Part shown: positions 1,296-17,700 of the stretch, one piece after another
How positions within the stretch are numbered: the stretch's first letter is position 1
Layout: every line of letters begins with the position of its first letter
DNA from: a virus
Lineage: Duplodnaviria; Caudoviricetes
DNA length: 58,017 bases
IMG/VR virus record: IMGVR_UViG_3300044993_000766
Coordinates: 1-58,017 of that record
Reading direction: 5' to 3' (one strand)
Translations under genes and position numbers: made by a program
Notes under the pieces: generated by a model
The model's input: the letters and a program-made list of their open reading frames with translations, nothing else
Database searches by the model: none
What the model was told of the DNA's origin: nothing

Positions 1296-4200
1296 TTAGC
1301 CGCCGCCCCCACCGCCGCCATCACCACCCCCACCGTCGCCTTGTGGTCCTTGTGCCGGCGACATTGAGCGCGCGCCCATCCGCATCGTCGGCCCCTTTGG
1401 ACCATCATCGTCCTGCTGCATCGCAATCTGCTGCGCCTGCTCCATCGCATGCTCGCGTGCTTGCATCACAGCCTGGGAGACAACGGACGACTGTTCAAGC
1501 GACTGCGATAGCGCCTGCTCCACGTTAATCGGAACCCGTCGATGCGCGGGGTCATCCAATGAGCCCTGTACGACAAAGAGCGTATCTGGGCGTCCTGTCT
1601 GCGGGTTAACCTTGCCGGGCACGATGTGGTCGTAGCTGGTTATGTTCCATCCTTCGGCCGCCAACGACATAGCCACAACAGATGCACCTAGCTTTTGGCG
1701 CTCATGCTGGGTCAGGCCACCCATGCCGGGGGCAACCTCGATCTGCGACAGAACGTTTTGCGCCCGTAGATACATGCCGTGGGCCGCATGCTTGGGTTCT
1801 GTGACGAGCGGGCCAGCCGACGATGCTGGCTCGGAGGTCGGCGTGTGTCCATGACGCTGATCGTCGGTCGGCTTGTGGTCCTCCTCGCGCTCGTCCCGCA
1901 TCGATGGGGGACGGATTAGCGCCGGATCGGGTGTAGTCGCAATTATCAAAGTAGAGGGCGCATCAATGCGCACGACCGGCTCCGGCTCACGCTCCTTGTC
2001 GTCTTCGACACTACGCCCACCTGAGATGGAAGGGCTGACAGAACGCGGTGCAATCACCGGTTGTGGCGCATCCGGTTCGGACTTTGGGTCGATCAAGAGC
2101 GAGCGGATCGGCGTTGCCTGTTCCGCGCGTTCGCGTTCGCGCTGTGCGGCTAAAGCTTGATCCACAGCATCGCGCGTTCCTTGATCGGCCACCCCGGTTG
2201 CGGGAATGCCATGCATCGTCTGAAACTGGCGAATAGCGTGCTCGGTTTCGGGACCATAGCGGCCATTCTGCGGGATCTGCTCTCCATCAGGGCCACGATA
2301 GCCCTGCCGATCAAGGCGGTATTGCAATAGTTCGACTGAATCGCCGCGGTCGCCCAAGCGCAATGCGTTCGAGTCAGGGCCAGTCGGTTTTTCAGCCGCG
2401 TCTACGCGGGTCTGTTGTGGAGGGATGTCATCGGAACGCGGAGTCAGGGAATCGGGCTGGCGTTCCGGGGTCGCAGATGTCGCTGGTGTCCCATCATGTC
2501 CGATGGTCCGCATAGAAGTCCGTCGGTCCTCGTCTAGCACCTGGGTCTCGTCTGCCCCCCCCTGTTGGGGGGTGTTGCTTTCGGCCTCCATGCGTTCACG
2601 TTCCAGTCGAGAGGCACCATCTTCATGCGCGCTCTGCGCGAGCGCCAATGCGGCCGTTGCCACGAGTGGCACTTCCTGGGTAACGGCATCCTCCGGCATG
2701 CGTTCAGGCCGATGTGTACGCTCCGGCTCGCCCTGAATAGCACGCACCGCACCATTTTCCATCGTCATCCCGCGTGAAGCGACCGCTAGCGTCGCCGCTT
2801 GAACTGTCTCCTGCGTCTGTTCCTGAGACAGGCCTAGCCGGTTCGCTTCGCGCGCCGCCTGCTCGCGTGCGCCGCGCTCCTCCGGGGTCGCCAGTGCGAC
2901 TGCTCGCTCAAATGGCGCTGGGTACGGCGTATCCTCCGTTCTCGCACGCACATCGGCGAGCGCGCGATTGATGTCCTCTGGCGTTGTCACAGCGACGATA
3001 CGCACCACGCCGTCGGCATTCCGGTGGATATGATGAATCGGGCTGTCGGGGCTGTACTGCCCGCTCTCGTCTGTCCCCAGCACCGTCACTGTATTGTCGG
3101 GGCCTATCCCTGCGGCGGCTCTGGTGCGCTGCACAGCAAGGTAACTGGCCTCGAACAGTTCAGGCCGAATCTCACGGTTGATGTCGTGATCCAGGTACGC
3201 TGTGCGTAACAAGGCGCGATCCGCCTGCTCTGGCGTCGGTGGTTGCCAGGACGGCATCCGAGCCAGTTCTCGCTGGTGATCTTGTAGCGCGGGCAGCATA
3301 CGATCACGGGTCAGTTCCAGCTCTAGCGCACGTTGTGCATCTGCCGGTGCGCCGTCATGTATCCATGTCCCTTGCGTATCGCGCCGGTAATGCTTTCCGT
3401 CGGAGGCTTGACGCAGATCGGGGTCAAGTGCGGTCGTCACGGCCGCAGGCATGGTATCCGCTGGTGAGGGAGTCTGGTCGTAACCATAAGCCTTATGCCC
3501 TCGCTGATATTGGGCTGCGATTTCGGCCGAGCTTGCCCTCAGGTTTGCGTCGATGACCCGTACAGCCTGCGCACTCAACTGAGCAGCACGCTCGGGATCG
3601 GCCACGGTACGCTCGACATCGACTGGCATGCGTTCGTTGTCGAGCTTCGTTACGATCCAACGCTCCCACTCACCGCTATCGGCCTTGTAAGTCCAGTTCG
3701 CCGGCGTCTGCCCCAAACTGCTGCGATCTTGTGCATTTGCGGGCTGCACGAAAGGATCAATCGGCTCGGGCACTTTGGCGATGGCCAGTTCCACGGCTTT
3801 TGCACTCGCCAGAGCACTCAACTCGCGGTGCTTGTCGGGCGGGGCCGCAAAAGATTGCTCTTGCGGAATATCGCGACCGTCATCCAGCAAGTCACCACGC
3901 AAATCCTGACGAATCCACTGCTTGCCCGTGTACTTCCAGTTCACGCCCTCACTGGCGATATTGGTGATTCCGTACTGTTGCCACCAATCCACCGCGCGCT
4001 CGGCAGCGGTACCGAATAGGTATGCCTCGCCGAGCACGAGCAGCGCTGTGCCGCCCGTGCCCGTGCCTAAAGCCGCAGCGGTGGTGGTCGCAGCAGCGGC
4101 GCCAACGACAGCGCCCGCGGTTTGAGCGCCTTGGCGCAGATATGCGTCGTTCCCTGCGGTTTCGTTGCCGAGTGTATTTTTGAATACCTCTGCACGCTGG

Positions 4201-6479
4201 TGGGTCTGCGCCCATTCATAGCCAGTCAACCCAACCTCAAGCAGTACACCACCTACCGCCGCGCGGCGGATTCGGGCTCGCTCGATTGCTTCTGGCTCAT
4301 AGGGCAGCAATTCCACCTTCGCCTCACGCGACAGTCGGGCCATCAATCCTTCAACACCTGCCTGTTCAGGTGGGCCAACGTGCGGCGTCCGCTCCACCGG
4401 GCGTGCCAGCGTTTGCAGGCGTTGCGTCATTTCACTGGCCGGTTCGGGCGCCTGCTCTGGGGTATGCACCACCTGCCCGGGCCGCACAATATGGGTGTAG
4501 TCGGGCACCAGTTGCTTAACTTCGCCCGCAGGCGTACTGCGGTCTATCTTCGGCCAATGGCGGAACAGGGCATTGCCTTCTGTAGAATGGTGAATCACGT
4601 CCATTCGGGGGTCGATGGTTTCCGGTACCCGTTGGAAGATCGGTTCACCCGTCAATGCATTACGGAAATCCGTCATCAGGTTCAGGCTGCGGTCGCCCAA
4701 GCCGCTGCGGAAGTAACTCCCCGCGAGGTCCGAATGCGCGCCTGCCACTGTGACGCTCAAGAACCGTTTATCCGCAGAGTGCCCCTCGGGAATGATGCGG
4801 TCCACCGGGAACAAGCCGCGTTGCTCGTCCGCCGCATTGATTTGGAAACCTGAGACTACCGAGGGCGGCAGACGGCGGTCAAAAAAATCTTCCAGGTAGC
4901 CCGTCGGTACCGGGTCGTACAGGCCGACCGACATGGGCACTTGCCCAGGCGTGATGTGATGGCGCGTATATGTCCTGACCGTATTGCCGTGCTCGTCGAG
5001 GGATTCGATCGCGCTGCTGGGGTCGGGGAAGCCGCGCTCATGGATCATCCGGGCCAGCAACGGTACGGTGCTGGCACCCCGGCTGAAGCCTTCGAGATGG
5101 ATACTGATCCGGGCCTGCGGATCCGCTTTGAGTATCTGGTTGATGCGCTCTGCTAACTCCGCATACATATCTTCGGCGCGCGCCAGCGACGTGCGCCCCA
5201 GCGCACCGTCCACGGTATTTTCGATGAGGTTGGTCTGTGTGCCTGGGCCGGCACGATATACGAAATCAACATTCGTGAGTCCATCCCTACGTAAATCTCT
5301 GATTTGTTCACGCAATTTCGCGACATTCGTGGCATGCAAGGGATCGCGATCCACATCGTTGCCCGTGCCATCCAGCAGACCGAACAGCATGTAAGAATGC
5401 CGGTCGTTACGATCCCACAGCGCCGGCACTTTGAATTCGCGCATCTGCGCAGCGGCGCGGTCGTAACTCTGGAGCTGCTCGCGGCTTGCGATGTCGTGCG
5501 GCACATCATCATAGGGCAGCCCATCTGCGTCCAGCCTGATCCGGGTTTTCCCTGACGCCGCATTCGCTATCTTGTCATCCAGCGCATCGAGTGTCCTCGT
5601 AATTGTGGACCTGGGCGCGGATAGCAGATTCGCTGGTGACGAGTCAGGCGACGGTGCGCGCAAAGCATCAAGATGGCGCATGCCTGCTTGCGCGAAATCG
5701 CTGGGTGGGGCCATCCGGTCGGCGAGCGGCCGAGTGACGACCGTGAAAGCCGGCGGCTGCGCAGTCAGAGCCGTCCCAGTAAAATAAGCGCGGCTATCGA
5801 TCAATAATTGCCCTGCATCGCTATATAGCGGTTTTCCGGCATCGTTGACGGCCACATTCAGCTTGCCCACATTCTCATAAGAACGCGCCTGCACAGCCTC
5901 GAATGCAGCGTTGCCACCGCGGTCGGCTTGAAGGTTCGCCAAACTGATGCGGTCGATGTCTTCGATGGTGGTGACACGCTCGTTCGCCAGCACGCGCGGA
6001 AGCTCGCTCGCCCCGAACACGCGGTCCGGCTGGGCGAAGCTGGTGATGGTCCGCACCTCACCCACCGTCTCGGCCGCGAACTTGGCCGAAACGATGTCCC
6101 AGGCGCCGTCCGCGATGCGCTTGCCGTCCGGCCCGATCGTCCCGAACAGGAACTGGTTCGCTTTCGTTCCACTCTCCAGCGGGTCGCTTTCGAAGACGCG
6201 CTCCAGCGTCTCGATCAGTTGCTGATTGCGGCTTCTTTCCGAGTACACATCCAGAAACTTGAATGCTTCGGTCTTGTCGAGAACGCGCACGTCTTCCCCA
6301 GCACTCAGCATACCGCTGATGATTTCGGTCGATGCGATCTCCGGTGCTAACCTGCCGCTGTAGAGAACAGTGACAGACCCCTGTGCCTGAACATCCAACC
6401 TGCTGATGAGCGCGCGCAGTTCCGCTTCCGATTTGATGCCCGGTAATTCGGCATTAGCCTCGGCCGACGAAATATCCAT
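1296..6479 (-). CDS. Xanthomonadales T4SS effector (X-Tfe): ARC-like N-terminal domain, Tle1/DUF2235 phospholipase, PG-binding domain, C-terminal XVIPCD
   Basis: DGTGND, GFSRGA and GAHSD Tle1 motifs; LRLGDRGDSVELLQYRL...YGPETEHAIRQFQ PG_binding_1 signature; LFVVQGSLDDPAHRR...ALSQSLEQSS plus Q-rich tail typical of XVIPCD; GAGG RBS. Confidence 0.88.
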   Translation of the reverse strand: MDISSAEANAELPGIKSEAELRALISRLDVQAQGSVTVLYSGRLAPEIASTEIISGMLSAGEDVRVLDKTEAFKFLDVYSERSRNQQLIETLERVFESDPLESGTKANQFLFGTIGPDGKRIADGAWDIVSAKFAAETVGEVRTITSFAQPDRVFGASELPRVLANERVTTIEDIDRISLANLQADRGGNAAFEAVQARSYENVGKLNVAVNDAGKPLYSDAGQLLIDSRAYFTGTALTAQPPAFTVVTRPLADRMAPPSDFAQAGMRHLDALRAPSPDSSPANLLSAPRSTITRTLDALDDKIANAASGKTRIRLDADGLPYDDVPHDIASREQLQSYDRAAAQMREFKVPALWDRNDRHSYMLFGLLDGTGNDVDRDPLHATNVAKLREQIRDLRRDGLTNVDFVYRAGPGTQTNLIENTVDGALGRTSLARAEDMYAELAERINQILKADPQARISIHLEGFSRGASTVPLLARMIHERGFPDPSSAIESLDEHGNTVRTYTRHHITPGQVPMSVGLYDPVPTGYLEDFFDRRLPPSVVSGFQINAADEQRGLFPVDRIIPEGHSADKRFLSVTVAGAHSDLAGSYFRSGLGDRSLNLMTDFRNALTGEPIFQRVPETIDPRMDVIHHSTEGNALFRHWPKIDRSTPAGEVKQLVPDYTHIVRPGQVVHTPEQAPEPASEMTQRLQTLARPVERTPHVGPPEQAGVEGLMARLSREAKVELLPYEPEAIERARIRRAAVGGVLLEVGLTGYEWAQTHQRAEVFKNTLGNETAGNDAYLRQGAQTAGAVVGAAAATTTAAALGTGTGGTALLVLGEAYLFGTAAERAVDWWQQYGITNIASEGVNWKYTGKQWIRQDLRGDLLDDGRDIPQEQSFAAPPDKHRELSALASAKAVELAIAKVPEPIDPFVQPANAQDRSSLGQTPANWTYKADSGEWERWIVTKLDNERMPVDVERTVADPERAAQLSAQAVRVIDANLRASSAEIAAQYQRGHKAYGYDQTPSPADTMPAAVTTALDPDLRQASDGKHYRRDTQGTWIHDGAPADAQRALELELTRDRMLPALQDHQRELARMPSWQPPTPEQADRALLRTAYLDHDINREIRPELFEASYLAVQRTRAAAGIGPDNTVTVLGTDESGQYSPDSPIHHIHRNADGVVRIVAVTTPEDINRALADVRARTEDTPYPAPFERAVALATPEERGAREQAAREANRLGLSQEQTQETVQAATLAVASRGMTMENGAVRAIQGEPERTHRPERMPEDAVTQEVPLVATAALALAQSAHEDGASRLERERMEAESNTPQQGGADETQVLDEDRRTSMRTIGHDGTPATSATPERQPDSLTPRSDDIPPQQTRVDAAEKPTGPDSNALRLGDRGDSVELLQYRLDRQGYRGPDGEQIPQNGRYGPETEHAIRQFQTMHGIPATGVADQGTRDAVDQALAAQRERERAEQATPIRSLLIDPKSEPDAPQPVIAPRSVSPSISGGRSVEDDKEREPEPVVRIDAPSTLIIATTPDPALIRPPSMRDEREEDHKPTDDQRHGHTPTSEPASSAGPLVTEPKHAAHGMYLRAQNVLSQIEVAPGMGGLTQHERQKLGASVVAMSLAAEGWNITSYDHIVPGKVNPQTGRPDTLFVVQGSLDDPAHRRVPINVEQALSQSLEQSSVVSQAVMQAREHAMEQAQQIAMQQDDDGPKGPTMRMGARSMSPAQGPQGDGGGGDGGGGGGG

Positions 6480-6488
6480 GTGCGGGCC

Positions 6489-6932
6489 TCAGAACTCGAA
6501 CGACACGATCGTGTTAGGAATCTGCTTCCTTGCGCCGTCGTAGCCCCTCGCAGTCAATGCTTCCTTGAGCGTTTCGATGACTTGGCGCAGGCGCACGTCG
6601 TCGAGGTCGTCTGGATAGATTTGGACGATCTTCCCCCAAGCCACGCGATACGGCGATTCGCTTAGCGTTTTCGACCCGCTTGCCCTGTCCACCTTGACGA
6701 AAAATTTTTGCCCATCCATCTCCAGCAGGAATTCGATCCAATACTCCCCATCGCGCGCTGGATTGGCGCCGCGTATTTGGCGGAGGATGATGTTCCGCTC
6801 CCGGTCGATGGTCCATTGCGGGGCGTAATTGTCCGGCAACTTCATCTCGCCCGGATACATGGCCAAATATGACTTGGCAAGCCCATATGTCTCGATGTCC
6901 TCGGCGGACACATATTCATTGACAAACGCCAT
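6489..6932 (-). CDS. Putative cytoplasmic immunity protein (MAFVNEY...WTIDRER type)
   Basis: Start reassigned to ATG 6932 with GGAG RBS; directly upstream of the effector; small, no signal peptide. Confidence 0.6.
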   Translation of the reverse strand: MAFVNEYVSAEDIETYGLAKSYLAMYPGEMKLPDNYAPQWTIDRERNIILRQIRGANPARDGEYWIEFLLEMDGQKFFVKVDRASGSKTLSESPYRVAWGKIVQIYPDDLDDVRLRQVIETLKEALTARGYDGARKQIPNTIVSFEF

Positions 6933-6948
6933 CGTTGCTCTCCGCAGG

Positions 6949-7485
6949 TCAAAATGTCTTTGTCCACGCCAGCTTAAGGTCGCGCAGACTATCGCTGTTC
7001 CTGACCGCCGGGTCACGGGGCTGCTTAAGTTCCACCAAACCGCGCATGTAGACATTGATCGTGCGGTCATTGACTTCGAGAAGGATCTCTACACGTCGCG
7101 AGCGATCGTCCAAACCCCACCCATCCTTGACCTCATGCTCTTGCGCGTTATGCAGAACCAGGCGATCGGGGAATATCTTCTCGAAGTTCAGCTTTGTGCT
7201 CCGCGCAACTCCATCCATGGCCGTCCACCAAATTTCAATGATCGGCGAGAAGACATCACTCGGCATGATGGCGAACCCTGCGGTCCAGTCGTCTTTCCAG
7301 TCGGGGCTCCTGGGTTCGCCGGACGAACTGAATCGGTTCCTTTGGGAAATATGCTGTTGGTTTATGAATATGACCGAGCATTCAAGGGTGTTATAGCATC
7401 TGGCGTCAAAACTAAATCTGTCGAACCTCAACGGCCACGGCTCGCGCGGCACTCTTTTCTTGAACAGTTTTCCGAGAATAAACAT
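6949..7485 (-). CDS. Putative immunity protein of the type found beside Tle1-like XVIPCD effectors
   Basis: WPLRF..FSFDARCYNTLEC and ILLEVNDRTINVYMR motifs resemble Xanthomonadales X-Tfi proteins (from memory); probable start ATG 7485 with GAGG RBS; ORF is open to 7767. Confidence 0.62.
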   Translation of the reverse strand: MFILGKLFKKRVPREPWPLRFDRFSFDARCYNTLECSVIFINQQHISQRNRFSSSGEPRSPDWKDDWTAGFAIMPSDVFSPIIEIWWTAMDGVARSTKLNFEKIFPDRLVLHNAQEHEVKDGWGLDDRSRRVEILLEVNDRTINVYMRGLVELKQPRDPAVRNSDSLRDLKLAWTKTF

Positions 7486-7896
7486 TTCAGCACCCTCTGG
7501 ATCGGTCGGAATTTCGTCTACGGCTAAAGCTGTCTGCACAGGAGTCGTTCGCTTTGGCAGGTTGGGCTTGCGCTTGGTCTGCACCGGCACGCCGCCAGCA
7601 GGCATTGGGCCATTTTCGCGCAAAGTCCTTTCATTAGCGATCTGCATGTCCCGAAGAAGCTGGAGGTCGTGATGGGTATCCTTTTTGCGCAAAGCCGAGG
7701 GCCTGCCCAAGTCTGACTCACCACTGGATTCGTTTGGATTCATCTGTACATCAGCCTGCGAACGCATCCATCATGAAATTCAGACCTGCCATGCGACAGC
7801 CTTTTACTGATCTGACTCCTACTTTTGATGCCTTCATGTTCAAAACCTATCCTCAATTTACTGGCGCCTTGCGCCGATAGTAGCGGCACAAAATTA

Positions 7897-9240
7897 TCAG
7901 TGGATAGCAAAATCAATTGATGCGCCTTTCTTGATCGAAATTCGATGGATCATGTGCGTGCCGTATGTCCTCCAGTACGCCTCCCACTCACTCTCTGGGC
8001 ACTCAAAGGTGAAGGCCCACACCATTTCAAGCGCCTCATCAATGGCAATGCACTTGTGCACGATTTCGTTCGTTCGGCCGGGTTCTCTATCCCGATACCT
8101 CAGCGTGACCACCCTCAAACCGTTTTCAGTATGATCGTCCTCGATCAATCTATCGCCATCTTCAATTCGGATTTCAAAATGAAGAATATAGTCGCGATAG
8201 ACGCGATCCCCTCCGGGCCAATAGCCGGATTTCATTCCGCTCATGACGTGTAAGGTGAAGCCCGTCTCAAACGGTTCTTCTCGCGAGAAGCGCGCCGGGC
8301 TCGTCGCATACACATCCGTGGCAATACCATCTCTTACTGGACGCGCCTCCAGCGCAACCACATGCCATGACTCGGGCTGAAAAAAGAAGGCATTTCCGAA
8401 CTCCACCCACCTGAAACCGTAGGGCACTGGGACCACTCTTACAGCAGATGTCCCTAATTCTGCGACATTGTCAGCGCCCATATTTGACGATGCGGCAATG
8501 CGCGCCTCATCTTTGTTCGATGCAATCCAAGCCGATGATTGTCCCGTCACATGACCCAAGGCAGGTTCAGGCTGGCGTTGTGAATTTGCGGATGAATCGG
8601 CATTGCTCGGCTTTCTGGTGAGCTTTCGTTGACTTGGCAGTCTGTCGCGGTCGTCCAGAAAGCCTGTCCACCGCGCAATCCAATATGCGCTCGTTGCCGC
8701 AACCCAAGTCCAACCCAAGCCGATCAGGGTGCCCCTTAACGTCATGCTGCTACTGATGAGCACCAAAGTAAAAACGATGGGCGAGAGCACGATCACCGGA
8801 ATAAGCCCGATCAACATTGGCTTAACGATCCACCTCCATTCCGGCAGACTGAGAATCGCAGCTTTTGCAGCGCGATGACTTTCCTCGCGCAAGCGCGATG
8901 CCAGGACCAGACGGTCTATAACCGACATCAGACGCTGCCGATTGTCCAGACGGGAATACCACCCGCTGGCCAATCTGCGACGCAACATTTCACGCGCTTC
9001 GGCGGACCCCTTGATGACGATCCATACTGAATAGAAGGATGCGATAAGCACAGGCGGAACAGCGCATGCAATGACGAGGCCTAACTGACTTCCAAAGACC
9101 TCAATAGCAAAGCCTTCAGACCGCGTAGACATCAGGTTGGGCAAAATCTCAATCGCGATCCAGCCAAACATGGCCGCCCATGCAGCAAGCACGAACGCAA
9201 TCATGATCCTGTCGATGAACTTACCTAGAATTCTCCACAT
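7897..9240 (-). CDS. Membrane protein (about 4 TM) with C-terminal soluble domain, function unknown
   Basis: 447-aa ORF with four hydrophobic segments in the N-terminal half; lower GC than the phage core. Confidence 0.7.
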   Translation of the reverse strand: MWRILGKFIDRIMIAFVLAAWAAMFGWIAIEILPNLMSTRSEGFAIEVFGSQLGLVIACAVPPVLIASFYSVWIVIKGSAEAREMLRRRLASGWYSRLDNRQRLMSVIDRLVLASRLREESHRAAKAAILSLPEWRWIVKPMLIGLIPVIVLSPIVFTLVLISSSMTLRGTLIGLGWTWVAATSAYWIARWTGFLDDRDRLPSQRKLTRKPSNADSSANSQRQPEPALGHVTGQSSAWIASNKDEARIAASSNMGADNVAELGTSAVRVVPVPYGFRWVEFGNAFFFQPESWHVVALEARPVRDGIATDVYATSPARFSREEPFETGFTLHVMSGMKSGYWPGGDRVYRDYILHFEIRIEDGDRLIEDDHTENGLRVVTLRYRDREPGRTNEIVHKCIAIDEALEMVWAFTFECPESEWEAYWRTYGTHMIHRISIKKGASIDFAIH

Positions 9241-9504
9241 ACAATTTTTCCCTCCGCATGCTTATACCCGCATCCTGCTTTTTTAGGCTCTTATTCTGTA
9301 CTTAATCACAATCTTGGACCTAGTTCATTTTGCACACCGCATCATGCTGCGACCCAGGGCTAAAAGCGTCCAGCAACACCATGGTTAAGGAAACAGGTAT
9401 AGCACAATCGCTAGCGCCACCCTTGCCCAAAACAATACCAAATCCGCGATGACTTCAATGGTAGTTCTTTCGTCTTCAAAGCGTCCACGACGGAGCGAAA
9501 ACAA

Positions 9505-9903
9505 TTAGTGGTTCCTCCTGCACGGGACTGGTTCCCCACGCTGAATCCGTTGGTAGATTTCTTCACGATGCACCGGCACGCTACGCGGGGCCTCGACGCC
9601 CACCCGCACCTGCCGCCCTCTTGCGAGGGCCGTCAGACCGCGCTTCGAACAGCCGTTGATACACACGACGAATTCTTCGCCAATGCGGAGCGACTCGCCC
9701 AGCAGAAGCGAAATCACATAGCGTCGATGGCGGCGCCCGTACTCTGAAGGCTCCACCAACACGTCGGCATCGTCCGTGACGGTCAACGCGGCAGGCGCAG
9801 CCAGCGCAACAGTGACGTGGCCCCGCACTTTTGAGCGGATGGTCAGCCGCACGCCATCACCGATGCGGATGCTTTCGCCCACGCGGCGCGTGAGGATCAA
9901 CAT
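9505..9903 (-). CDS. csrA: CsrA/RsmA-family protein with internally duplicated CsrA domain
   Basis: MLILTRRVGESIRIGD N-terminus, second LLGESLRIGEE repeat, C-terminal QVRVGVEAPRSVPVHREEIYQRIQ. Confidence 0.9.
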   Translation of the reverse strand: MLILTRRVGESIRIGDGVRLTIRSKVRGHVTVALAAPAALTVTDDADVLVEPSEYGRRHRRYVISLLLGESLRIGEEFVVCINGCSKRGLTALARGRQVRVGVEAPRSVPVHREEIYQRIQRGEPVPCRRNH

Positions 9904-10086
9904 AGCGCACCCCACCTACTGCTGTATGAGACACTTTGCTGCCAACAGGGCGCGCACCGGCTAGCGCAATCTTTCACTAGACCGAACACGCTACCGCTTC
10001 CGTTTTGATCTACGATCAGCGCATCGATCTTCATCCTGTTTCTCCTTGAGAAATAACAGTGGAGTCGCCCGGCACGGCGGCTTGTC

Positions 10087-10461
10087 TCAAGCCTCCGAGT
10101 TCGCTGCTGAATGCCGCTGCTGCGCTGAGTCGCCACGACGAACGCTGCGGCCCGGCGCATCAATCTCCAATACGAAGCTGCGCAACACGGTCGCACCCAC
10201 CACAGGCGGCTGCCGGTCGATGCGTACCGTCATGCCTTTGACCCAGAACGTTTCGCCTGCGGCCAACCACAGCACGCCCACCACGTTCCCATGCGAGTCG
10301 CAATCGCTCTTGACGGTGTTCGACCGAGGCTCCTCGCCATCCGCGCACTGCTGTGCCGTGACCATGACGAGGCAGCAGTCAGCGTCTTTGCCAATCACCA
10401 CCATCCGCACGTCATCGCCGATCCAGACCGGTTCGCGCACGGCCACTTGCATGCGCACCAC
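10087..10461 (-). CDS. Divergent tandem CsrA-like protein
   Basis: GTG start with GAGG RBS gives MVRMQVAVREPVWIGDDV, colinear with the CsrA N-terminus; second repeat LAAGETFWV...LEIDAP. Confidence 0.62.
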   Translation of the reverse strand: MVRMQVAVREPVWIGDDVRMVVIGKDADCCLVMVTAQQCADGEEPRSNTVKSDCDSHGNVVGVLWLAAGETFWVKGMTVRIDRQPPVVGATVLRSFVLEIDAPGRSVRRGDSAQQRHSAANSEA

Positions 10462-10554
10462 ACTTTGCCTCTGCCTTCTGCAACGGGACTGCCTATGTAC
10501 CTTATTGCCGCCACGCTCGCAACAAACACTTGTAGCATGTAGCAACATTTTACA

Positions 10555-10860
10555 TTAGCGCTTGCCGGTCGCGACCGCCCTGCGTTTGGTCACGGGCCGG
10601 CGGCCCAGGGCGCTACGCGCGACCGACCGCGCCGGCCGCTTTGGCGATGCGGGCACACTGTCGATGAGCAGCAGCAAGCGATGCGTCGCAGCGCCTGCAC
10701 CCAAGGCGACCGGCAGCGGCTCGCCGTTACTGCCGCACAGGCTGGCTTGCTCGGGCAGGGTGAAGTCGATCGCCCAGCCACCGACCAAGGGCTGCACACG
10801 GATATCGAGACCATGCAGCATCGCGGGGATGGAAGGCGCTTGCGCGCGACTACGGGGCAT
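10555..10860 (-). CDS. Small hypothetical protein in the CsrA-like operon
   Basis: ATG 10860 with AAGGA RBS overlapping the upstream gene's stop region. Confidence 0.5.
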   Translation of the reverse strand: MPRSRAQAPSIPAMLHGLDIRVQPLVGGWAIDFTLPEQASLCGSNGEPLPVALGAGAATHRLLLLIDSVPASPKRPARSVARSALGRRPVTKRRAVATGKR

Positions 10861-11281
10861 GCAGAGGTTCCTTCTGTCGTAGATGAAGAAGCGGTACACA
10901 GGCGGCCGGGCGCACTGGGGGCCTGGGGCGCAGGCGCGCGCGCAGCCGCGCATGGCGCGCAATGGCCAGCTCTTGCGGGGCATCTACGCAGACCCGGTAC
11001 GGGCGCAGCAAGCTGGCCGCAGTAGGCATCGCGAGCGTCTCAATCCGCAGATACGTCGCACCCACCCAGAAGCCAGCACCAGGGGCGAGGGCCAACACCG
11101 AACTGATCCAGCCCGCATCGCCAGGGGTGCTGGCGCGAAACCCGCGCTCGACGACCAGGGCGCAGTCCCAGGCGGTTTCGACAAACACGTAGATCAACCC
11201 CGCCGCGCACCCTGTCACTTGCAGACAAGCGCCGACGCCCAATTGCAAGCGTTCCCCTGCGGCGCAGTCGATCGCGCCCAT
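10850..11281 (-). CDS. Divergent tandem CsrA-like protein
   Basis: MGAIDCAAGERLQLG..., second repeat LAPGAGFWVG...RVCVDAPQELAIAR; TGAATG coupling to the upstream gene. Confidence 0.62.
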   Translation of the reverse strand: MGAIDCAAGERLQLGVGACLQVTGCAAGLIYVFVETAWDCALVVERGFRASTPGDAGWISSVLALAPGAGFWVGATYLRIETLAMPTAASLLRPYRVCVDAPQELAIARHARLRARLRPRPPVRPAACVPLLHLRQKEPLHAP

Positions 11282-11719
11282 TCACGGCCCACTCGAAAGT
11301 TGCCGGCGCCCGTCACCGTCCATCCGCGACATGGGCAGCGCGGTCGCAACGGGCGCCGGCAGGAGGGCAGGGTTGGAGGCAACAGGCTGCGCAGCATCGC
11401 CCGCACGGCGCTGCGTAATGCCGATATGAAGCCAGTTGTCGCAGTCCGCGGCCAGCGGCACCAGCTCGCCGGGCAACCAGACCTGAACCTCGAACGGCCC
11501 GAGGGTGAACCTGCGGAGGGCTTGCAGGGAAAACAAATAGGTCCAGACGCCCACCGTGCCGGCAATGGGGGTGACAGGCGCACCGTCCAGCGTGAGGCGG
11601 GTGCCGGCAGGCGCGGTCGCGCCCAGAACCACCCTCTCCCCCTGCCGGCGGTGGATCGCGATTCGAATGTTCTCACCGAGGCGCAGCGCGCACCCGATCT
11701 GGCATGTCTCGACCCGCAT
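11282..11719 (-). CDS. Divergent CsrA-like protein, first gene of the operon
   Basis: MRVETCQIGCALRLGENIRIAIHRRQGERVVLGATAP matches the CsrA beta-strand pattern (GxxVxLGIxAP); GGAGG RBS. Confidence 0.68.
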   Translation of the reverse strand: MRVETCQIGCALRLGENIRIAIHRRQGERVVLGATAPAGTRLTLDGAPVTPIAGTVGVWTYLFSLQALRRFTLGPFEVQVWLPGELVPLAADCDNWLHIGITQRRAGDAAQPVASNPALLPAPVATALPMSRMDGDGRRQLSSGP

Positions 11720-11766
11720 CCTGCGCCTCCCTTATTCCCGTGGGCGGTGCCCACCGTTACCGGCCA

Positions 11767-11802
11767 AGGAAAGCATTGCTCAGAAGAATTGTCAATGGCA
11801 AT
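11767..11802. promoter_or_regulatory. Divergent promoter/operator between the csrA-like operon and the repressor
   Basis: Minus-strand TTGACA (11790-11795) with 17-bp spacer to TG-n-TTTCCT; near-perfect inverted repeat ATTGTCA-A-TGGCAAT at 11788-11802 overlaps it. Confidence 0.5.
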
Positions 11803-11847
11803 ATTTATTTCTATCGGAAAGTCTCCAGGTCGAGTAGGATCGCGATC

Positions 11848-12510
11848 ATGAACAAGTACACCGAGGCTTTGGTCGCCGCGATGGGCAAGAGACGCATCCG
11901 CAGCCGGACGCTTGCTGCGGAAGTCGGCACGATCAGTGAAAACGCTATCGCGCAATGGCGCAGCGGCCGGCGTCCGGTCCCGGTCGAGTACGCACCCAAG
12001 CTGGCGAAGTTGCTTGGCGTACCGCCGCAGTCCATCAGCGAATCCTACGATCGACTTCTGCAATCCGGTGTCATCACGTCTGCGGAGGGCGGCCACGAAG
12101 CATGGGCAAATCCGCCTGCGGGCCATGCAGTCATTGAGCGATTGATAGGGTTTGGCCGTGCGGACGAACAGGAGCGGCTCTGGCTGCCGGAACTCATGCT
12201 GCGGCGGGAATTGGGCGCGACACCGATCGAGAATGTCCGTTGGGTCACACTACATTCGCGGACGATGGAACCGGAAATCAAACGCCATGCCGTGGTGCTG
12301 GTGGACATCAGCGCCACCCGGCATGAGGAGGTCGTCGATGGCCGACTGTACGCCTACTCGCTACTCGGGCGGTCAGATATTCGTCGGATCACGATTCGTC
12401 GGGATGCCTGGATACTGATCGGCGACAACGAAGAACGGATCAAGACCAGCGTACCTACCGCGGACTTGCCGGAGCTTCACTTGCTTGGCATGGTCATCGG
12501 CTGGCTATGA
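11848..12510 (+). CDS. XRE-type HTH repressor with S24-like C-terminal domain, probably non-autocleaving
   Basis: HTH SENAIAQWRSGRRPVP; C-terminal SRTMEPEI...VVLVD...DGRLY...IRRI...GDN...LLGMVI; ATG 11848 with AGGA RBS. Confidence 0.85.
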   Translation: MNKYTEALVAAMGKRRIRSRTLAAEVGTISENAIAQWRSGRRPVPVEYAPKLAKLLGVPPQSISESYDRLLQSGVITSAEGGHEAWANPPAGHAVIERLIGFGRADEQERLWLPELMLRRELGATPIENVRWVTLHSRTMEPEIKRHAVVLVDISATRHEEVVDGRLYAYSLLGRSDIRRITIRRDAWILIGDNEERIKTSVPTADLPELHLLGMVIGWL

Positions 12511-12633
12511 CGGCGGTATTTGCGCCTAGAATACGCCAGACGCAGGCTGCTGAGCATAACAGGCGGACACCCCGGGGCTGCATCACCAGCCGGCACAAGG
12601 AACAGGGAGCAGGACGTGGATTACCCCAATGGA

Positions 12634-14136
12634 ATGAGAATCGCGAAAGGACTGGCGCTCGCCATCGGCTATTGCATTGCCTATCTCGTACTTCGCTATT
12701 TCTCATATGACCAATGGTTTCTTCCGGCAGGATTACGGGCGGTCTGTCTTTTCTTTTTGCCCTATCGATATTGGCCACTTGTTTTCATAGGAGATGCCGC
12801 CGCAGTGATGTATGGGCGCATCCCGGCAGAAACCGAAAAAAATCAGATCTGGGTTTATCTTGGCCCATTTATGCTGATTGCAGGGACCTCAATTGCACCA
12901 TATTTACTTCGAAAAAGGCTGGCGAACGCACAAGCGATTGCGCATAGATTGCCGATTGCGGCCGCATGTATCTCGGCATGGGGCGGCATTTGCACAGTTG
13001 CGTTAAACGCGACACTTGGAGGTCCAGATGAATACGCTACGTTGGATTTTTTTATAACAAAACTCTTTGCAAATTATTTGGGCGCACTGCTGGGGCTGCT
13101 GCCATTTCTGATTTGGATCAATAGGCACCACTATATAGGACAACTTAAAAAAGCGGCACGAAATATTGTGCTTTCGGCCATATCGATTGCACTCATGTTT
13201 GCCTACTTGGAATACTGGCACACAGGTAGCGAAGTAGCGAGAAAAGCGGTACTAATGCTGATGATCTGTCCAGCGTTGTTTCTCACTTACTATCACGGGT
13301 GGCTAGGCGCAGCATTCGGCGTCATTCTTGTCAATATCGGCATCGCACAGACTATGACCTATATGCGAACTCCCGGTATTCCAGTCCCATACGACGAAAG
13401 CGTTTTTCTCGCTCAGATCGGACTATCCATCGCAGCGTCCGCTTTTCTGATCCTGGGAACGAGAATTACGTCCCATTACGAGAATGCGATTGAATCAGGT
13501 GTCGCAGAAAAAAAAGCCAGGAAAATATCGCGCATAGCACTACTCTCGAACGAAGAAGACGCCCGAGACCAAGTTATTTGCATGGCACAGCTACATTTAC
13601 TTCTGGATGAAAAACAGGAAGAACTTGTCCACTGGCTCAAGGCTAACGGCAAACATGAGGAGGCTTTCAACCTCAAAAGCAGTGGTGCGCAACGGCGTAA
13701 GAAGTTCCATGAGAATGCCTTGGCGGTTTACCCCATCGGCATCGAAGAAAAGGGCTTATTCGCCGTCATCCACTCGCAGACCTTCGAGGATCGATGGACA
13801 AACGGTATACCGATGGCGATCAGTCTGGATAAAGGCGACCCGAAGAAACTCTCCATTGAATTGCAAGTCGCTGCATACCGCTGCCTGTGTAGCGCGGTTG
13901 TGCTGATGTGCGACTGGAGGCCAGAAGAGCTGCACATGCGCGTTCGTGTCTGGCAGACAACCTTGCACCGAGGCGTCTATTTCTCAGTGTCAGCATTCCG
14001 CCCAGGAGAACCACAAGCGACTCAGGCGGGCGCTGCTTCCTCTTTGTATCTCGACGCAAAGGTCAGTGCGCATGGCGGCATTCTGCGCCACCATGCGCAC
14101 CGAGTTAGCGTCCTGCTTGCGGAAGAAATGACTTAG
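12634..14136 (+). CDS. MASE1 membrane sensor with degenerate histidine-kinase-like C-terminus
   Basis: WFLPAGLRAVCLFFLPYRYWP MASE1 signature, many TM helices; YPIGIEEKGL and LQVAAYRCL resemble HisKA_3/HATPase linkers; start may be GTG 12616. Confidence 0.82.
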   Translation: MRIAKGLALAIGYCIAYLVLRYFSYDQWFLPAGLRAVCLFFLPYRYWPLVFIGDAAAVMYGRIPAETEKNQIWVYLGPFMLIAGTSIAPYLLRKRLANAQAIAHRLPIAAACISAWGGICTVALNATLGGPDEYATLDFFITKLFANYLGALLGLLPFLIWINRHHYIGQLKKAARNIVLSAISIALMFAYLEYWHTGSEVARKAVLMLMICPALFLTYYHGWLGAAFGVILVNIGIAQTMTYMRTPGIPVPYDESVFLAQIGLSIAASAFLILGTRITSHYENAIESGVAEKKARKISRIALLSNEEDARDQVICMAQLHLLLDEKQEELVHWLKANGKHEEAFNLKSSGAQRRKKFHENALAVYPIGIEEKGLFAVIHSQTFEDRWTNGIPMAISLDKGDPKKLSIELQVAAYRCLCSAVVLMCDWRPEELHMRVRVWQTTLHRGVYFSVSAFRPGEPQATQAGAASSLYLDAKVSAHGGILRHHAHRVSVLLAEEMT

Positions 14137-14154
14137 ATCGCAAGGCTTATGCGC

Positions 14155-14556
14155 TTACTCCGCGGGCCGAACGATCCAGCGATCTTGATCCGACTGCCGG
14201 TAGAAGATGACCTCAATCTTGTTGTCCCGATACACCATGCGGCCTGTGACCGGGGACTGCTCATCGGTCTGAATTACCCAAGACGTTGCGTCGATTTGCA
14301 GGGCCGAAACACGCACCCCGCTCACTGCGTTATTGATTTCCATATAGCGGACGCCCTGCCATGTGGCCTCCTGCTTCTGCCAAGCAGGGTCGCGCACCAA
14401 ATCAACGACGTTGGGCATCGTTGACGCCGAACCGCTCGTTACTTTTGGTGCATCACCGCCAGTACCTACTTGCGCATGGGCAGAAGCACTGGTGAACATC
14501 GTCGCAAGCAGCAGAACTGCAAGTGCGATCGCATATCGGAAAGCCGGAATGGCCAT
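14155..14556 (-). CDS. Small secreted/periplasmic protein
   Basis: Sec signal peptide ending ASAHA-Q; convergent with the MASE1 gene. Confidence 0.75.
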   Translation of the reverse strand: MAIPAFRYAIALAVLLLATMFTSASAHAQVGTGGDAPKVTSGSASTMPNVVDLVRDPAWQKQEATWQGVRYMEINNAVSGVRVSALQIDATSWVIQTDEQSPVTGRMVYRDNKIEVIFYRQSDQDRWIVRPAE

Positions 14557-14745
14557 GTCAATCTCCTTGAAAATGTCCGTGATATGTGTGTTAGCGCATG
14601 CACTTCAAAATCTGACATGCGCTAACAGTTTTGCGCCCGCAAGATATAGCGTCTCCGGGGCTGTAGGACGGTAGCACCACCACACGTAGCGCAATGTGCG
14701 CATGCCACAGTCCGCCATCCAGTTCCCGTTACTGTCTGCGTTGGG

Positions 14746-17700
14746 TCATTCACCGCCAACACCTTCTTCTTCAGCAATTCGCTGCCGCAGTGCCGCATCG
14801 TAGGCAACACCGTTTTCGGCCCGTTTGCTGTATGCCTCACGCGCGCGCAGCGAGCGGCGGATGGTCTGCCCAGTGATGGGCTTTTCGGGGTACGCCTTGT
14901 TGAAGGCCAGTATCTTCCGGCGCACTTCGAGTGCCGCGTCCTGATCGTCCATACGCAGCGCCATGGCATAGGCCGCCAACAGCGCCTTGCGACGGTCGAG
15001 AATGTGTCGCTCGCGGTCCTTGAGTGCGCGATTCACGGCGTACTGCCGCGCCACTTCGGCCGGCGTGAAGCCGATGGCCTGCAAGAATTCATCCTTGAAG
15101 TCGGTATCGGTCACGAGGTCGCCGCGCGTGGAGGTGACGCCTTCTTCGGCATAGCGCAGCGCCTTCATCGCATCCTTGAGCGCCTTGGGCAACATGGTCT
15201 CCACACCGCGATAGACCTGACCTTCGGCAATCAACTGCGTGCCGACAAAGAAGTTTTTTGCGATGCCGAACATCGGCCCCGCCACGTTGTCCATCATGGC
15301 GTAGTAGGCATCGCGGCCGTCCAGTTCGCGATCGGCATCGCGCCACAGCAGTTGCGACATTTCCACGCGGCTGGCGATGTCGGCGCCCGTCAGTGTGTTC
15401 GCTGCACCGTTCATTGCGACTTCCGCGCCAGCTTCACCCAGAAACTGCGCGAGGAATTTGCGGATTTCGGCCTCGGTATCCCACGGGTCGTCCTCATCGC
15501 CGAATGCATGCGCGATAGCGTCGATCACGCCGATGGACAGCGACGCCATCGGCAGGCCCATCGCGCCGGAGAAAAAACCACTCATGACCAGCACACCAGC
15601 AAGATTGCGCCGCGCCAGCCGGCGCACTTCGGGGCTGTCGCCTCGGGTCGCCTTCCAGCCCATACGGCCCAGGTGCCAAAGCATGTTCAGACCGTACTGC
15701 TTGAACATCAGCACGATCTTCGCTGGCCCCGATTGCAGGTAGCGTGCGCGGTTAGCGTTGCTGTAGTTGAAGTGGGTCGCGGTAATGGTGTCGGCCGCAA
15801 AACGCACGGCGGCATCGAATGATTGCCCCGCGTCGCGCGCAAGGCGATAGGCCGCCATGCCGGACGCTTCGCGGTTCAGCACTTCTGCGGTGTGAAACAG
15901 CCAGCCGATGAGTTCCATCGCGCGCGCCAGCTTGGGGTTGTAGGTGGCAAGACCGCCCTCGGCCAGCCCCATCAGCGCGTGGGTCTGCGTCTTGTCGAGC
16001 ACACCGGCCTGCTGCAAAGCGGCGTGGGCTTTGACCTCATCCGGGCGCTTGAGCACCTTCTGCGCATGTCCGGCCGTGCGCGCCGAGTCGTTCATGGCGC
16101 GCATGAGGTGGCGCATGGCGTTCGCCGGGCCGAATTGCGACGCCAACTGCGGGAAGGTCAGGACGGCGGTCTGAGTGAGGTTGACCAGCGCCGCCGCTGG
16201 CGTCACACCCAGGAAGTAGACAAAGCCGATCGAGGACAGACGGTTGGTCATCGCGCTGTCCTGCGGATTCAGCACCCACTGGTGACGCTGATCCAGCTCG
16301 CCGAGGATGGCGTCCATCGCGACGACAGCACGGGTGTCGGTGTCCGGCTCGCGCCTGCGAATATCCTGCGCCTCACGCAGATCCGCCAAGGTGCGCTCCA
16401 GCACATGCCCATACCGCAGCCGCGCGAGCTGATGCGCGCCATGTGCCATGTTGTGAGCGAAGGCGCGCAGCGCATCAGGATCGAAGCCGGCGACGCCTTG
16501 CCGGTGGATCGCATGCTTGCGCATCGACAACTCCGGCAGCGTTTGCAGGTAGGTTTGATAGATCGCGTCCTGCGTTTTCTCCGACACACCGGCTTTACGC
16601 AGTTGTTCGATCACGTCGGCGACGAACGAGCCGCTGGGCGCGTCCTTGGCTTGCGCGCCGCGCAGCCGACCGCGAGCCTTGACCGCGAATCCGCGCGCCT
16701 TGAACGCCGCTTCCCTGCGCTCAAGCGCGGCCGGACTGTCGAGCATGAGAAACACCGGCTCGCCGTCGCGCTCGGCCGCTATGAAGTATTCGCCGTATCG
16801 CTGCAAGGGGAAGTAGACGCCCTGAAGGCGATGGGTCTCGAACTGCTGTCGAATCGAAAACACCAGCTTGCGCTTGAGGCCGTCCGGCGCCTCGCTGGCT
16901 TCGATGCGCTGAGCGAGCGCGTCTTCGACTTGCTGGGAGCGGTCGCGGTACAGGTTACGCATCTGCCGGTAGAAGCCCTGCGCCTCCGGCGACAATGCCT
17001 GCCACTGCGCGCGAAGCGTCGGGTAGATGCGCTTTCGGGATTCCTCGCGCCCCGGCATGCCGCGCAAGCGGCGGGCTTCTTCCATCATGTCGATCTTGTT
17101 GTCGGCGCTGCGCCCGAGCATCTGCTCGCGCAGGGCTTTGAGCGCCTCGCGGATATTCTTGCGATTAGCATCGTGCAACTGCCCGCCATAGCGGAATTGC
17201 AGCACCTGGTACGCCTCGGCCGGATCGACGCCTTCGAGCGTCGCCCGGTGCATCAGATCGAACAAACGCTTGGCCTCGGCCTTGTGGCGTCCGGCCCAGC
17301 GGCGGACGCTCTCGGCGAGGTCCGCACCCTCCTCCAGCAGTGCGTTACGGTCGGCCGACATGGCGTCGAGCTGGCGGGAGAATCCGGCGATGGCCGGGTC
17401 GTAGTCGCTGCCCAGTTCGGTCAGGTGGTTGGTGGCCAGTGCGCCCAGCCAGACGCTGCGGCTGGCGTCCTTGAGTTTGGCCGGGGTGCTGTCGCGCAGC
17501 CACTGTCGCACGCGATCAAGCCGGCTTGCGTCTTCATCCTGCCGCACTACGGCGTCCACGTCGGCCAGAAAACCCTCCGGCGCACGCCGGCTGAACATCG
17601 GCAACCCCTCCGCGACGGCGGTCCGCATGGCGGGTGTGATGTCGAGGGCGTGAACGTCCAGTGGAGGCGACCGGAAGCGCGGACGAATCTGTGCGGTCTT

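Follow-up and report, generated by a model that had tools for sequence, protein, structure and literature searches.

A conserved cassette of tandem CsrA-like genes, a repressor predicted not to cleave itself, a putative MASE1 pseudo-kinase and a secreted protein in Lysobacteraceae genomes and a prophage

Organization of the cassette

An IMG/VR provirus record (IMGVR_UViG_3300044993_000766; 58,017 bases, complete; hereafter the window) was analysed. At positions 9505-14556 it carries a cassette encoding CsrA-like proteins, a helix-turn-helix (HTH)/S24-like repressor, a membrane protein with a MASE1 domain and a small secreted protein. All the elements that a preliminary description, made from the letters of the sequence, had placed in this interval were found there (Table 1). 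The layout is that of a cI/cro-like divergent region: the operon of CsrA-like genes faces away from the repressor gene, which is followed by the MASE1 gene and then by the convergent gene with a signal peptide. The interval contains four paralogous tandem (two-domain) CsrA-like genes, named A, B, D and F, as well as two small putative open reading frames (ORFs), C and E. Gene A has a strong Shine-Dalgarno (SD) sequence, AAGGGAGG.

No response regulator family was found among the 10 ORFs scanned (eight from the cassette and two just outside it), in agreement with the absence previously noted. ORF C had no match in Pfam, NCBIfam or PADLOC, no relative in the fetched loci and no similarity to CsrA, and no relative of ORF E was detected in the fetched loci, one of the E queries having been out of frame. 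The cassette gave no Rfam match and no NCBIfam match beyond CsrA, and a comparison of 10 proteins with PADLOC-DB 2.0 at E ≤ 0.01 returned no defence family.

Table 1. Features of the cassette and of its surroundings in the window.
Feature	Position	Strand	Remarks
Integrase	1-1239		
X-Tfe-type type IV secretion system (T4SS) effector	1296-6479	minus	Tle1-like lipase, PG_binding_1 and XVIPCD domains
Two overlapping ORFs preceding the effector	6489-7070, 6949-7767	minus	conserved with the effector in relatives
Transmembrane protein	7897-9240	minus	possible downstream cargo
Gene F, single-chain tandem CsrA, 132 aa	9505-9903	minus	Pfam CsrA in two stretches
ORF E (putative), 45 aa	9897-10033	minus	good SD
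Gene D, extra tandem CsrA-like paralogue, ~121 aa	10087-10452	minus	ORF open to 10548
ORF C (putative), 101 aa	10555-10860	minus	start set by eye at an internal ATG with SD
Gene B, tandem CsrA-like, 143 aa	10850-11281	minus	B family; start abuts the stop of A
Gene A, tandem CsrA-like, 145 aa	11282-11719	minus	first gene of the operon; A family
Divergent control region, 128 bp	11720-11847		imperfect palindrome TTGTCAATGGCAA at 11789-11801
HTH/S24-like repressor, 220 aa	11848-12510	plus	HTH_3; no catalytic dyad
MASE1 membrane protein, 506 aa	12616-14136	plus	ORF open from 12520; likely start 12616 or 12634
Small secreted/periplasmic protein, 133 aa	14155-14556	minus	convergent, 18 bp from the MASE1 stop
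Polyvalent protein, 4724 aa	14746-28920		Eco57I-type methylase, SF2 helicase and LPD39 domains; closes the block of virion genes
Cro-like HTH gene	56733-57197	minus	faces away from the HTH/S24-type gene; replication genes including DnaB downstream
HTH/S24-type (cI-type) protein, 246 aa	57277-58017		identified by reading and alignment

Conservation of the cassette as a unit

To describe the distribution of the cassette, species-representative genomes were searched with a MASE1 profile, which found 115 relatives; 80 loci were kept, 76 of which had an intact MASE1 ORF. These loci came nearly all from Lysobacteraceae, with up to four from one assembly. Among the 76 loci, the secreted-protein gene was present in 73, the repressor gene in 55, tandem CsrA genes in 50 and all four kinds in 46, these counts being lower bounds because the cassette is cut by the contig end in some loci. 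Any other cluster of ORFs was common to 9 loci at most, and the flanks were variable and otherwise unrelated. The reverse search, with a profile of the A family, found 7 metagenome loci, with the repressor in 7/7, MASE1 in 6/6 of those long enough and the secreted protein in 4/4. The conservation of gene neighbourhood, which had been proposed as a check, was therefore observed from both sides, with the same gene order in 46/76 genome loci and the repressor beside the CsrA-like genes in all seven metagenome loci.

A similar picture was obtained for viral contigs. Six of them encode a full-length relative of F, and five of the six keep the order secreted protein-MASE1-repressor-A-B-F. In the sixth (L004), A-B-F and the X-Tfe cluster are present, whereas other genes stand in for those of the repressor, the MASE1 protein and the secreted protein. 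Directly upstream of the CsrA-like genes and on the same strand (L004:4030-7088) was a regulator with REC and GerE domains, and divergent from it a hybrid kinase with HisKA, HATPase_c, REC and Hpt domains; a classical pair thus takes the position of the sensor and the DNA-binding protein. This pair, located directly ahead of the tandem CsrA genes, has the architecture of GacS/GacA-type pairs. Two other viral contigs with distant tandem CsrAs, L010 and L045, encode none of the partners.

The proteins of the cassette also diverge together. Co-divergence of pairwise identities was highest between MASE1 and the repressor (rho 0.81), followed by A and F (rho 0.72) and by MASE1 and the secreted protein (rho 0.59), each rho calculated in this work being reached by 0/200 permutations. 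Overall, the cassette is not a chance neighbourhood, and its four kinds of genes are inherited jointly; we consider it highly probable that they form one functional module.

Tandem CsrA-like proteins

Protein F matched Pfam CsrA (PF02599) in two stretches (E 6.1e-22, 77.8 bits versus a cut-off of 27) and exceeded the cut-offs of the NCBIfam CsrA equivalog models (75.7 versus 73, and 71.2 versus 70.1). The match of A to Pfam CsrA was faint and below the cut-off (E 0.062), and neither B nor D had any Pfam match. Family alignments of A, B/D and F were built from related loci and their profiles were then compared. Against a profile of 20 phage single-domain CsrAs, both halves of F were recognized (N-half, 99.2%, E 2.8e-19; C-half, 99.5%, E 7.3e-23), as was the N-half of A (98.4%, E 4.5e-15), the C-half of A matching weakly (E 0.005); the corresponding values of the B/D family against single CsrA were 90.8% for the N-half and 45% for the C-half. 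In profile-profile comparisons of the families, A matched F over its full length (99.6%, E 1.9e-24, 108 columns), and B/D matched both F (98.4%, E 5.9e-15, 116 columns) and A (97.2%, E 4.4e-11).

At the level of single genes, B had 13 related ORFs in other loci. D, which is not present in the closest relatives, gave phmmer matches to B-type and F-type ORFs elsewhere, was recognized by the B model (hmmsearch E 1e-33) and aligned within the B family. Since the A, B/D and F profiles match one another, the window holds four paralogous tandem CsrA-like genes of one superfamily, as expected from the CsrA-like array of the preliminary description. When the three family models were applied to 64 loci, in which some cassettes were truncated and some adjacent genes merged, one tandem CsrA-like gene was counted per cassette in 32 loci, two in 25 and three in 6; four were present only in the window.

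The two repeats of F are conserved in different ways. In the 41 sequences of the F family, the invariant residues of the first repeat are L2, R6, G9 and G15, in an MLxLxRRVGE strand, and those of the second repeat are A105, R113, E114 and E115, with P106 nearly invariant, in an APxxVxVHREEIY segment. The second repeat is devoid of the first-strand arginines and the first repeat is devoid of HREE. In RsmE-RNA structures, the RNA-binding face of the CsrA/RsmE dimer is composed of strand 1 of one subunit and of strand 5 and the helix of the other. This complementary conservation therefore predicts that F is a single-chain pseudo-dimer, in which one composite RNA face is conserved and the other presumably lost. 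The A family has other invariant residues (C6, R25, R29, P51, S64, R69 and H98) and no HREE motif.

The AlphaFold2 (AF2) model of F (predicted local distance difference test, pLDDT, 86.7; predicted template-modelling score, pTM, 0.80) exhibited two successive CsrA-like sets of strands, of which only the second ended in strand 5 and the helix. Compared by Foldseek with chains of CsrA, RsmA and RsmE, this model gave a probability of 1.00, target-normalised template-modelling (TM) scores of 0.80-0.86 and a root-mean-square deviation (rmsd) of 1.2-3.5 Å, with 41-45% identity over 60-66 columns and E-values of just 0.05-0.26; one half of F superimposed on CsrA chains with an rmsd of 1.2-1.7 Å. No Foldseek match of the F model reached E ≤ 0.001. 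NEAT domains, which ranked first by E-value, were rejected as chance matches, with an rmsd near 16 Å.

Relatives of F were also searched more widely. The F profile gave 28,084 matches at E ≤ 0.001 among 1.84 billion representatives, mostly ordinary CsrAs, and 23 matches at E ≤ 1e-30. Several dozen of the best 150 matches were full-length, one-stretch proteins of roughly 100-250 aa. One protein of 2972 aa (P0022) matched the tandem-CsrA profile in 13 stretches (E 1.2e-32) and may be a long array of CsrA-like repeats. Deposited phages provided 21 matches to F, all of them covering less than 80% of the protein. Moreover, 12 Xanthomonas plasmids encode a 116-aa 'carbon storage regulator' outside any such cassette; that of pXCV183 (L165:6001-6351), located beside HU and SSB genes, matches residues 1-120 of F.

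Repressor and control region

The N-terminal part of the repressor was assigned to HTH_3 (E 8.8e-6, 26.1 bits versus a cut-off of 23). By hhalign, the repressor family was colinear over 177 columns with the cI-type protein encoded at 57277-58017 of the window (E 0.0014), and the C-domain alone scored 22.7 against this protein, compared with at most 16.9 in 20 shuffles. A search of PDB sequences with the repressor profile gave weak HTH matches only.

The columns of the catalytic dyad were set by alignment to the same cI-type protein, for 62 members of the repressor family. The nucleophile column contained Ala in 40 members, Thr in 11, Ser in 10 and Met in 1 (Thr139 in the window), and the Lys column contained Arg in 62/62 and Lys in 0/62 (Arg179 in the window). 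The Ser-Lys dyad is thus missing across the family, in line with the non-cleavable repressor postulated earlier, and LexA-type self-cleavage is therefore not expected; control independent of RecA-stimulated self-cleavage is plausible. The linker of the window repressor contains A91-G92, a candidate for the cleavage site, with Ala91 in 14/62 and Gly92 in 39/62 members of the family. A tblastn search of 72,556 plasmids, Legionella plasmids included, gave no match to the repressor.

In the control region, the palindrome TTGTCAATGGCAA was found once in the window versus 0.19 expected, and its complement reads TTGACA, a -35-like element, on the strand of the CsrA-like genes. The palindrome is a perfect 6-1-6 in three relatives (L085, L089 and L162). 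A repeat scan of 11690-11880 returned nothing, the palindrome having been found by eye and by comparison across loci. Among 45 intergenic regions, 39 contained TGTCAA (TTGACA on the CsrA strand), versus a shuffled mean of 1.5. Beside this hexamer, palindromes or repeats specific to each of seven groups co-varied with the HTH helix region of the repressor, which is the pattern of putative allele-specific operators placed at a shared -35 element.

MASE1 protein

The N-terminal part of the membrane protein matched Pfam MASE1 (E 5.7e-21). MASE1 was the sole Pfam family in the 74 family members studied, none of which (74/74) had a HisKA or HATPase match even at E ≤ 1. By hhalign, the family aligned end to end with Escherichia coli UhpB (residues 2-503 versus 1-497, 96.4%, E 1.4e-9), and the C-terminal 211 residues aligned with the catalytic and ATP-binding (CA) domain of UhpB over 102 columns (E 0.0022), with a score of 26.8 that exceeded those of all 20 shuffles (18.6 at the highest).

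In the AF2 model of residues 296-506 (pLDDT 90.1), a hairpin of two helices (2-48 and 52-76) precedes an alpha/beta domain. The best Foldseek match was DesKC, the cytoplasmic domain of DesK (E 3.2e-7), out of 143 matches at E ≤ 0.001; the matches listed were mostly histidine kinases and kinase-like modules. TM-scores were moderate (0.39-0.48) with a high rmsd, a combination to be expected where the hinging of the two sub-domains differs. In the ESM Atlas, kinase-type clusters were found at 0.84-0.86, as leads only, and a PDB sequence search with a profile of 5 MASE1 sequences gave chance rows only.

Conservation of the fold was not accompanied by conservation of the kinase motifs. In 54 of the 74 members, Ala occupied the column aligned to the phospho-acceptor His of UhpB; a nearby column, His327 in the window, contained Gln in 50 and His in 11 of the 74. 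The N-box and G1/G-box positions were not conserved in the alignment to UhpB. The combination of a kinase-core fold, with dimerization and histidine phosphotransfer (DHp) and CA domains, and of motif loss supports the assignment of the C-terminus as a degenerate, presumably inactive pseudo-kinase, as had been suggested from the sequence.

No match to the MASE1 protein was found in 50,697 deposited phage records. Modelled together, residues 296-506 (two copies) and the full repressor gave scores of 0.32, 0.27 and 0.32, compared with 0.00, 0.29 and 0.00 for the controls, values that speak neither for nor against contact. In Xanthomonas citri, a mutant of XAC1778, a MASE1 'sensor kinase' possibly of this family, is described as biofilm-defective (PMC3130047).

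Secreted protein

The presence of a convergent gene for a signal-peptide protein was confirmed, and a relative lies downstream of the MASE1 gene in 73/76 loci. The signal peptide has an AHA-Q site, as read by eye. The library scans gave no family match for this protein, and the ESM Atlas no usable match, the Atlas model being poor (pLDDT 0.49). In 54 of 66 relatives the signal peptide is closely followed by a CxC or CC motif, and 64 of 66 have an 11-residue segment of the LPIGxDADRV type. The secreted protein of the closest relative (L084) also has no such segment, a character shared with the window copy, and retains CxC. Among 61 pairs of MASE1 and secreted-protein genes, 33 had overlapping 3' ends (median -4 bp) and a further 10 had 3' ends within 30 bp of each other. 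As the most faithful partner of MASE1, the secreted protein would fit a role on the sensing side.

Such a faithful partner might also be a signal in its own right. The cassette would then serve cell-cell recognition or quorum sensing, and the secreted protein, or a peptide derived from it, would be the signal received by the MASE1 protein of its own allele. Besides the 73/76 association and the convergent, overlapping genes, the variable, CxC-containing N-terminus after the signal peptide and the occurrence of several divergent alleles per genome would agree with this. However, the secreted protein co-diverges less with MASE1 (rho 0.59) than the repressor does, MASE1 domains have little periplasmic surface, and the mature protein, of ~110 residues with a conserved core, has the look of a folded partner in the periplasm rather than of a pheromone precursor. 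We consider a signalling role of this kind very unlikely.

Proposed mechanism

We propose, tentatively and as somewhat short of an even chance for the whole chain, that the genes at 9505-14556 constitute a self-contained, horizontally mobile regulatory cassette of Lysobacteraceae which would act as follows. The repressor would bind the allele-specific palindrome on or beside the TTGACA -35 element and keep the CsrA-like operon off. It would be under the control of a partner, most likely the pseudo-kinase, because it is apparently unable to cleave itself. A cue from the envelope or from outside the cell would be reported by the pseudo-kinase together with its periplasmic partner, the repressor being bound or released without phosphotransfer. 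Derepression would then yield single-chain CsrA pseudo-dimers, those of the F type having a single conserved RNA-binding face made of beta1 of the first half and of beta5 and the helix of the second half. The tandem CsrAs might bind GGA-type leaders monovalently, so that translation of the targets would be altered or the bivalent CsrA of the host out-competed. Downstream genes on the same strand would be co-expressed, namely the T4SS X-Tfe toxin cluster in the window and an Rhs toxin elsewhere.

Several observations weigh against this mechanism, and the first of them count in favour of a rival explanation, two independent modules lying side by side: a MASE1 sensor with its periplasmic partner, signalling elsewhere, and a repressor-controlled CsrA-like operon of the mobile-element type, as in the lvr system of Legionella. 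The pair of MASE1 and secreted-protein genes was found alone, without repressor or CsrA-like genes, in ~16/76 loci once contig-end truncations were set aside (before which 21/76 loci had no repressor ORF). These pair-only loci belong to Xanthomonas, Dyella, one Lysobacter record and one Pseudomonas record, and in a quick tree of 74 MASE1 proteins they need one change of state (support 74). Since the pair is found alone, the sensor can work with other outputs. Conversely, the CsrA-like genes of L004 manage without the MASE1, secreted-protein and repressor set. Moreover, co-divergence was low across the divergent promoter (rho just 0.26 for A-repressor and 0.27 for A-MASE1), so the two halves of the cassette appear to recombine freely, and the rho pattern shows what would be a frequent recombination break at this promoter. 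Independent occurrence of the components, which the preliminary description had named as part of the evidence against a single system, was observed for the MASE1/secreted pair and for A-B-F; all four kinds occur together in 46/76 loci.

Other features speak against the two-module explanation, which we regard as rather unlikely. The repressor gene always lies between the two presumed modules (55/76 from the MASE1 side and 7/7 from the CsrA side); the repressor co-diverges most with MASE1 (rho 0.81), and not with the CsrA-like genes; and in L004 the sensor and the regulator were replaced together. These correlations are weak evidence of interaction, because linkage and shared ancestry alone give such values and the loci are not independent.

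The remaining points against the proposed mechanism concern its individual components. The Peptidase_S24 match of the repressor (E 1.4e-4, 22.0 bits) was under the Pfam cut-off of 23.3, and the S24 assignment is weak, its support coming from the hhalign match to the cI-type protein. A scan for consensus promoters gave 0 sites in 9200-14800, and the -10 element of the window, read by eye, was poor. The beta5 HREE motif is missing from A, B and D, which makes it doubtful that these proteins bind RNA in the canonical way. The secreted protein of the window has neither the CxC motif nor the 11-residue segment, and this copy may be degenerate or defective, or belong to a distinct sub-type. Finally, most cassettes have housekeeping neighbours, so a link to toxins cannot be the general function.

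In its boldest form, the proposed mechanism would amount to a phosphorylation-free pathway feeding the Csr network through proteins and not small RNAs. Contact or damage to the envelope would be sensed by a dead kinase with its periplasmic partner, which would retain or free a dead-protease repressor; monovalent, single-chain CsrA decoys would then occupy GGA sites, with no bridging between them, and relieve repression by the bivalent CsrA of the host. In cassettes followed by a toxin gene (X-Tfe in the window, Rhs elsewhere), the toxin would be switched on while its CsrA-controlled delivery machine is de-repressed. Allele-specific operators and multiple copies would give each toxin island its private trigger. 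CsrA is described as repressing the X-T4SS virB operon in X. citri (PMC7286519). We consider this extended version improbable as it stands.

Relation to known systems

The nearest described system is Legionella lvrRABC, a regulatory module of T4SSs borne by genomic islands or integrative and conjugative elements. It is described as encoding LvrR, with SOS-response-regulator-like domains, and the CsrA-domain protein LvrC, on genomic islands and in several copies per genome (PMC3864950). CsrT-type paralogues of CsrA are reported to be co-inherited with integrative and conjugative elements, and csrA to be present on plasmids and in 30 of 2517 phages surveyed (PMC7366521). The resemblance of the cassette to lvrRABC is one of architecture only, namely an SOS-type regulator of a mobile element with a CsrA-domain protein. 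Unlike lvrRABC, the cassette encodes one to four paralogous CsrA-like proteins, each with two repeats fused in tandem, it includes a MASE1 pseudo-kinase and a secreted protein, and in the window it has no attached T4SS among the scanned ORFs.

The individual components also have known counterparts. The MASE1 protein shares with the UhpB/DesK (HisKA_3) kinases a MASE1 membrane domain, a DHp hairpin and an alpha/beta CA domain, but it has no conserved phospho-acceptor His, no conserved N-box or G-box and no detectable Pfam kinase family; its partner gene in the cassette encodes an HTH/S24-like repressor, with no response regulator within the cassette, although one might be encoded elsewhere in the host genome. 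F resembles the CsrA/RsmA/RsmE homodimers by a sequence match over the Pfam cut-off and by the same strand pattern, whereas it is one chain of two unequal repeats with, as predicted, one conserved RNA face. Non-cleavable cI/LexA-like repressors are inactivated by antirepressors in, for example, Gifsy-type and 186-type prophages. The repressor of the cassette is similar to these in its cI-like architecture, with a C-terminal domain for binding and not for self-cleavage, and differs in its candidate partner, a membrane pseudo-kinase encoded immediately downstream instead of a small SOS-induced antirepressor.

No account of a tandem or pseudo-dimer CsrA, or of a MASE1/pseudo-kinase partner, was found in the literature, supplementary tables being outside the search, and a survey of Pseudomonas CsrA uses neither 'tandem' nor 'fusion'. 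The cassette was not found in deposited phages, searched with MASE1 and F, or in plasmids, searched with the repressor. Relative to mobile-element systems consisting of a repressor plus CsrA, the new parts are the sensor arm and the new form of CsrA.

If the proposed mechanism is true, a kinase-fold sensor dead for catalysis would control a cI-type repressor dead for self-cleavage, providing a route from membrane to promoter without phosphotransfer or RecA. A natural single-chain CsrA with one conserved RNA face could show what bivalency adds to Csr regulation, a question so far addressed, to our knowledge, only with engineered heterodimers. The cassette, which is abundant in Lysobacteraceae and repeatedly located before contact-dependent toxin genes, might account for the way in which the post-transcriptional network of a host is tuned by its toxin islands and prophages. 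Control of Csr by proteins would become directly testable in Xanthomonadales, for which we know of no established CsrB/RsmZ-type RNA.

Neighbouring genes and toxins

The genes at 1296-9240 of the window are on the same strand as the CsrA-like genes, and no terminator-like site was found on that strand in 9200-9505; they are possibly downstream cargo of the CsrA-like operon, with putative co-transcription. One of the two overlapping ORFs ahead of the X-Tfe-type effector may be its immunity gene. The scanned subset of window ORFs contained no T4SS genes. The order F, 6949-type ORF, X-Tfe was also observed in L004, L005, L008 and L166.

For a link with the neighbouring toxin genes, whose control by the cassette had previously been suggested as a possibility, there is some support. 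A tblastn search with an Rhs core was positive in 11/80 loci, always directly downstream, on the side and strand of the CsrA-like genes. These loci are scattered in the MASE1 tree, their cassettes being 31-70% identical to that of the window. Several viral relatives and 2 genome loci share with the window the presence of X-Tfe-type genes directly downstream. The association is, however, limited to a minority of loci. In the 6 kb that follow the CsrA-like genes, 66 same-strand ORFs from 38 loci were examined; RHS_repeat and DUF6531 were found in 9 and XVIPCD in 2, the remainder being housekeeping genes, such as glutamate synthase and trp genes. In the other flanks (111 ORFs from 27 loci), the commonest families were housekeeping or regulatory, with no integrase or phage family among the 25 families listed. 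The cassette thus appears to be a small unit inserted at many chromosomal sites, heading toxin genes in a minority of loci, and not a phage function.

In one Xanthomonas group, the MASE1/secreted-protein pair adjoins VirB5-like and VirB6/TrbL genes and a Gabija-like pair. In L140 (1976-7795), for example, a Gabija-like pair (an AAA_15/OLD-TOPRIM ATPase and a UvrD-like helicase) lies beside a Xanthomonas-type MASE1/secreted pair, with VirB5-like and VirB6 genes on the other side.

The surroundings also bear on a possible role in anti-phage defence or superinfection exclusion, in which the membrane protein would sense infection and the CsrA-like proteins would stop translation. The position of the cassette in a prophage accessory region, at the integrase end, would suit such a role, as would its allelic diversity, with several divergent copies per genome, and the proximity of a Gabija-like pair in L140. 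Opposed to it are the failure of PADLOC models to recognize any of the 10 proteins, the location of most cassettes among housekeeping genes and not in defence islands, and the absence of an enzyme-like effector from the cassette. Defence therefore seems a quite improbable function.

Prophage setting

By its gene content, the window is a real prophage. In addition to the integrase, it encodes a large terminase, an SU10-type portal and adaptor, DnaB, an internal virion protein and a transglycosylase. The cassette occupies an accessory region flanked by the late genes on one side and the integrase on the other. The gene at 14746-28920 was considered as a toxin and rejected in view of its methylase, helicase and LPD39 domains; this polyvalent protein resembles the giant virion proteins of Bcep22-like podophages and of the P1 DarB type.

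Lysogeny had been mentioned as another process that the cassette may control, as a switch or a second immunity region of the prophage. The divergent repressor layout, the allele-specific operators and the presence of the cassette in 6 related viral contigs are compatible with this. However, a second HTH/S24-type gene, divergent from a Cro-like gene followed by DnaB, is already present at 56733-58017. Its product, as read and aligned, has a Ser and a Lys at the places expected for a LexA/cI dyad. This pair is likely the lysogeny switch of the prophage, and control of lysogeny by the cassette is unlikely because of it. In addition, the adjacent giant virion protein was unmatched in 76/80 genome loci, the surroundings of most cassettes are housekeeping genes and not prophages, and the MASE1 protein was absent from the 50,697 phage records searched. 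A lysogeny or immunity function is, accordingly, the least credible of the functions considered and extremely unlikely. Finally, a tRNA-Met gene (anticodon CAT) was found on the minus strand at 53131-53203, between the terminase and replication blocks.

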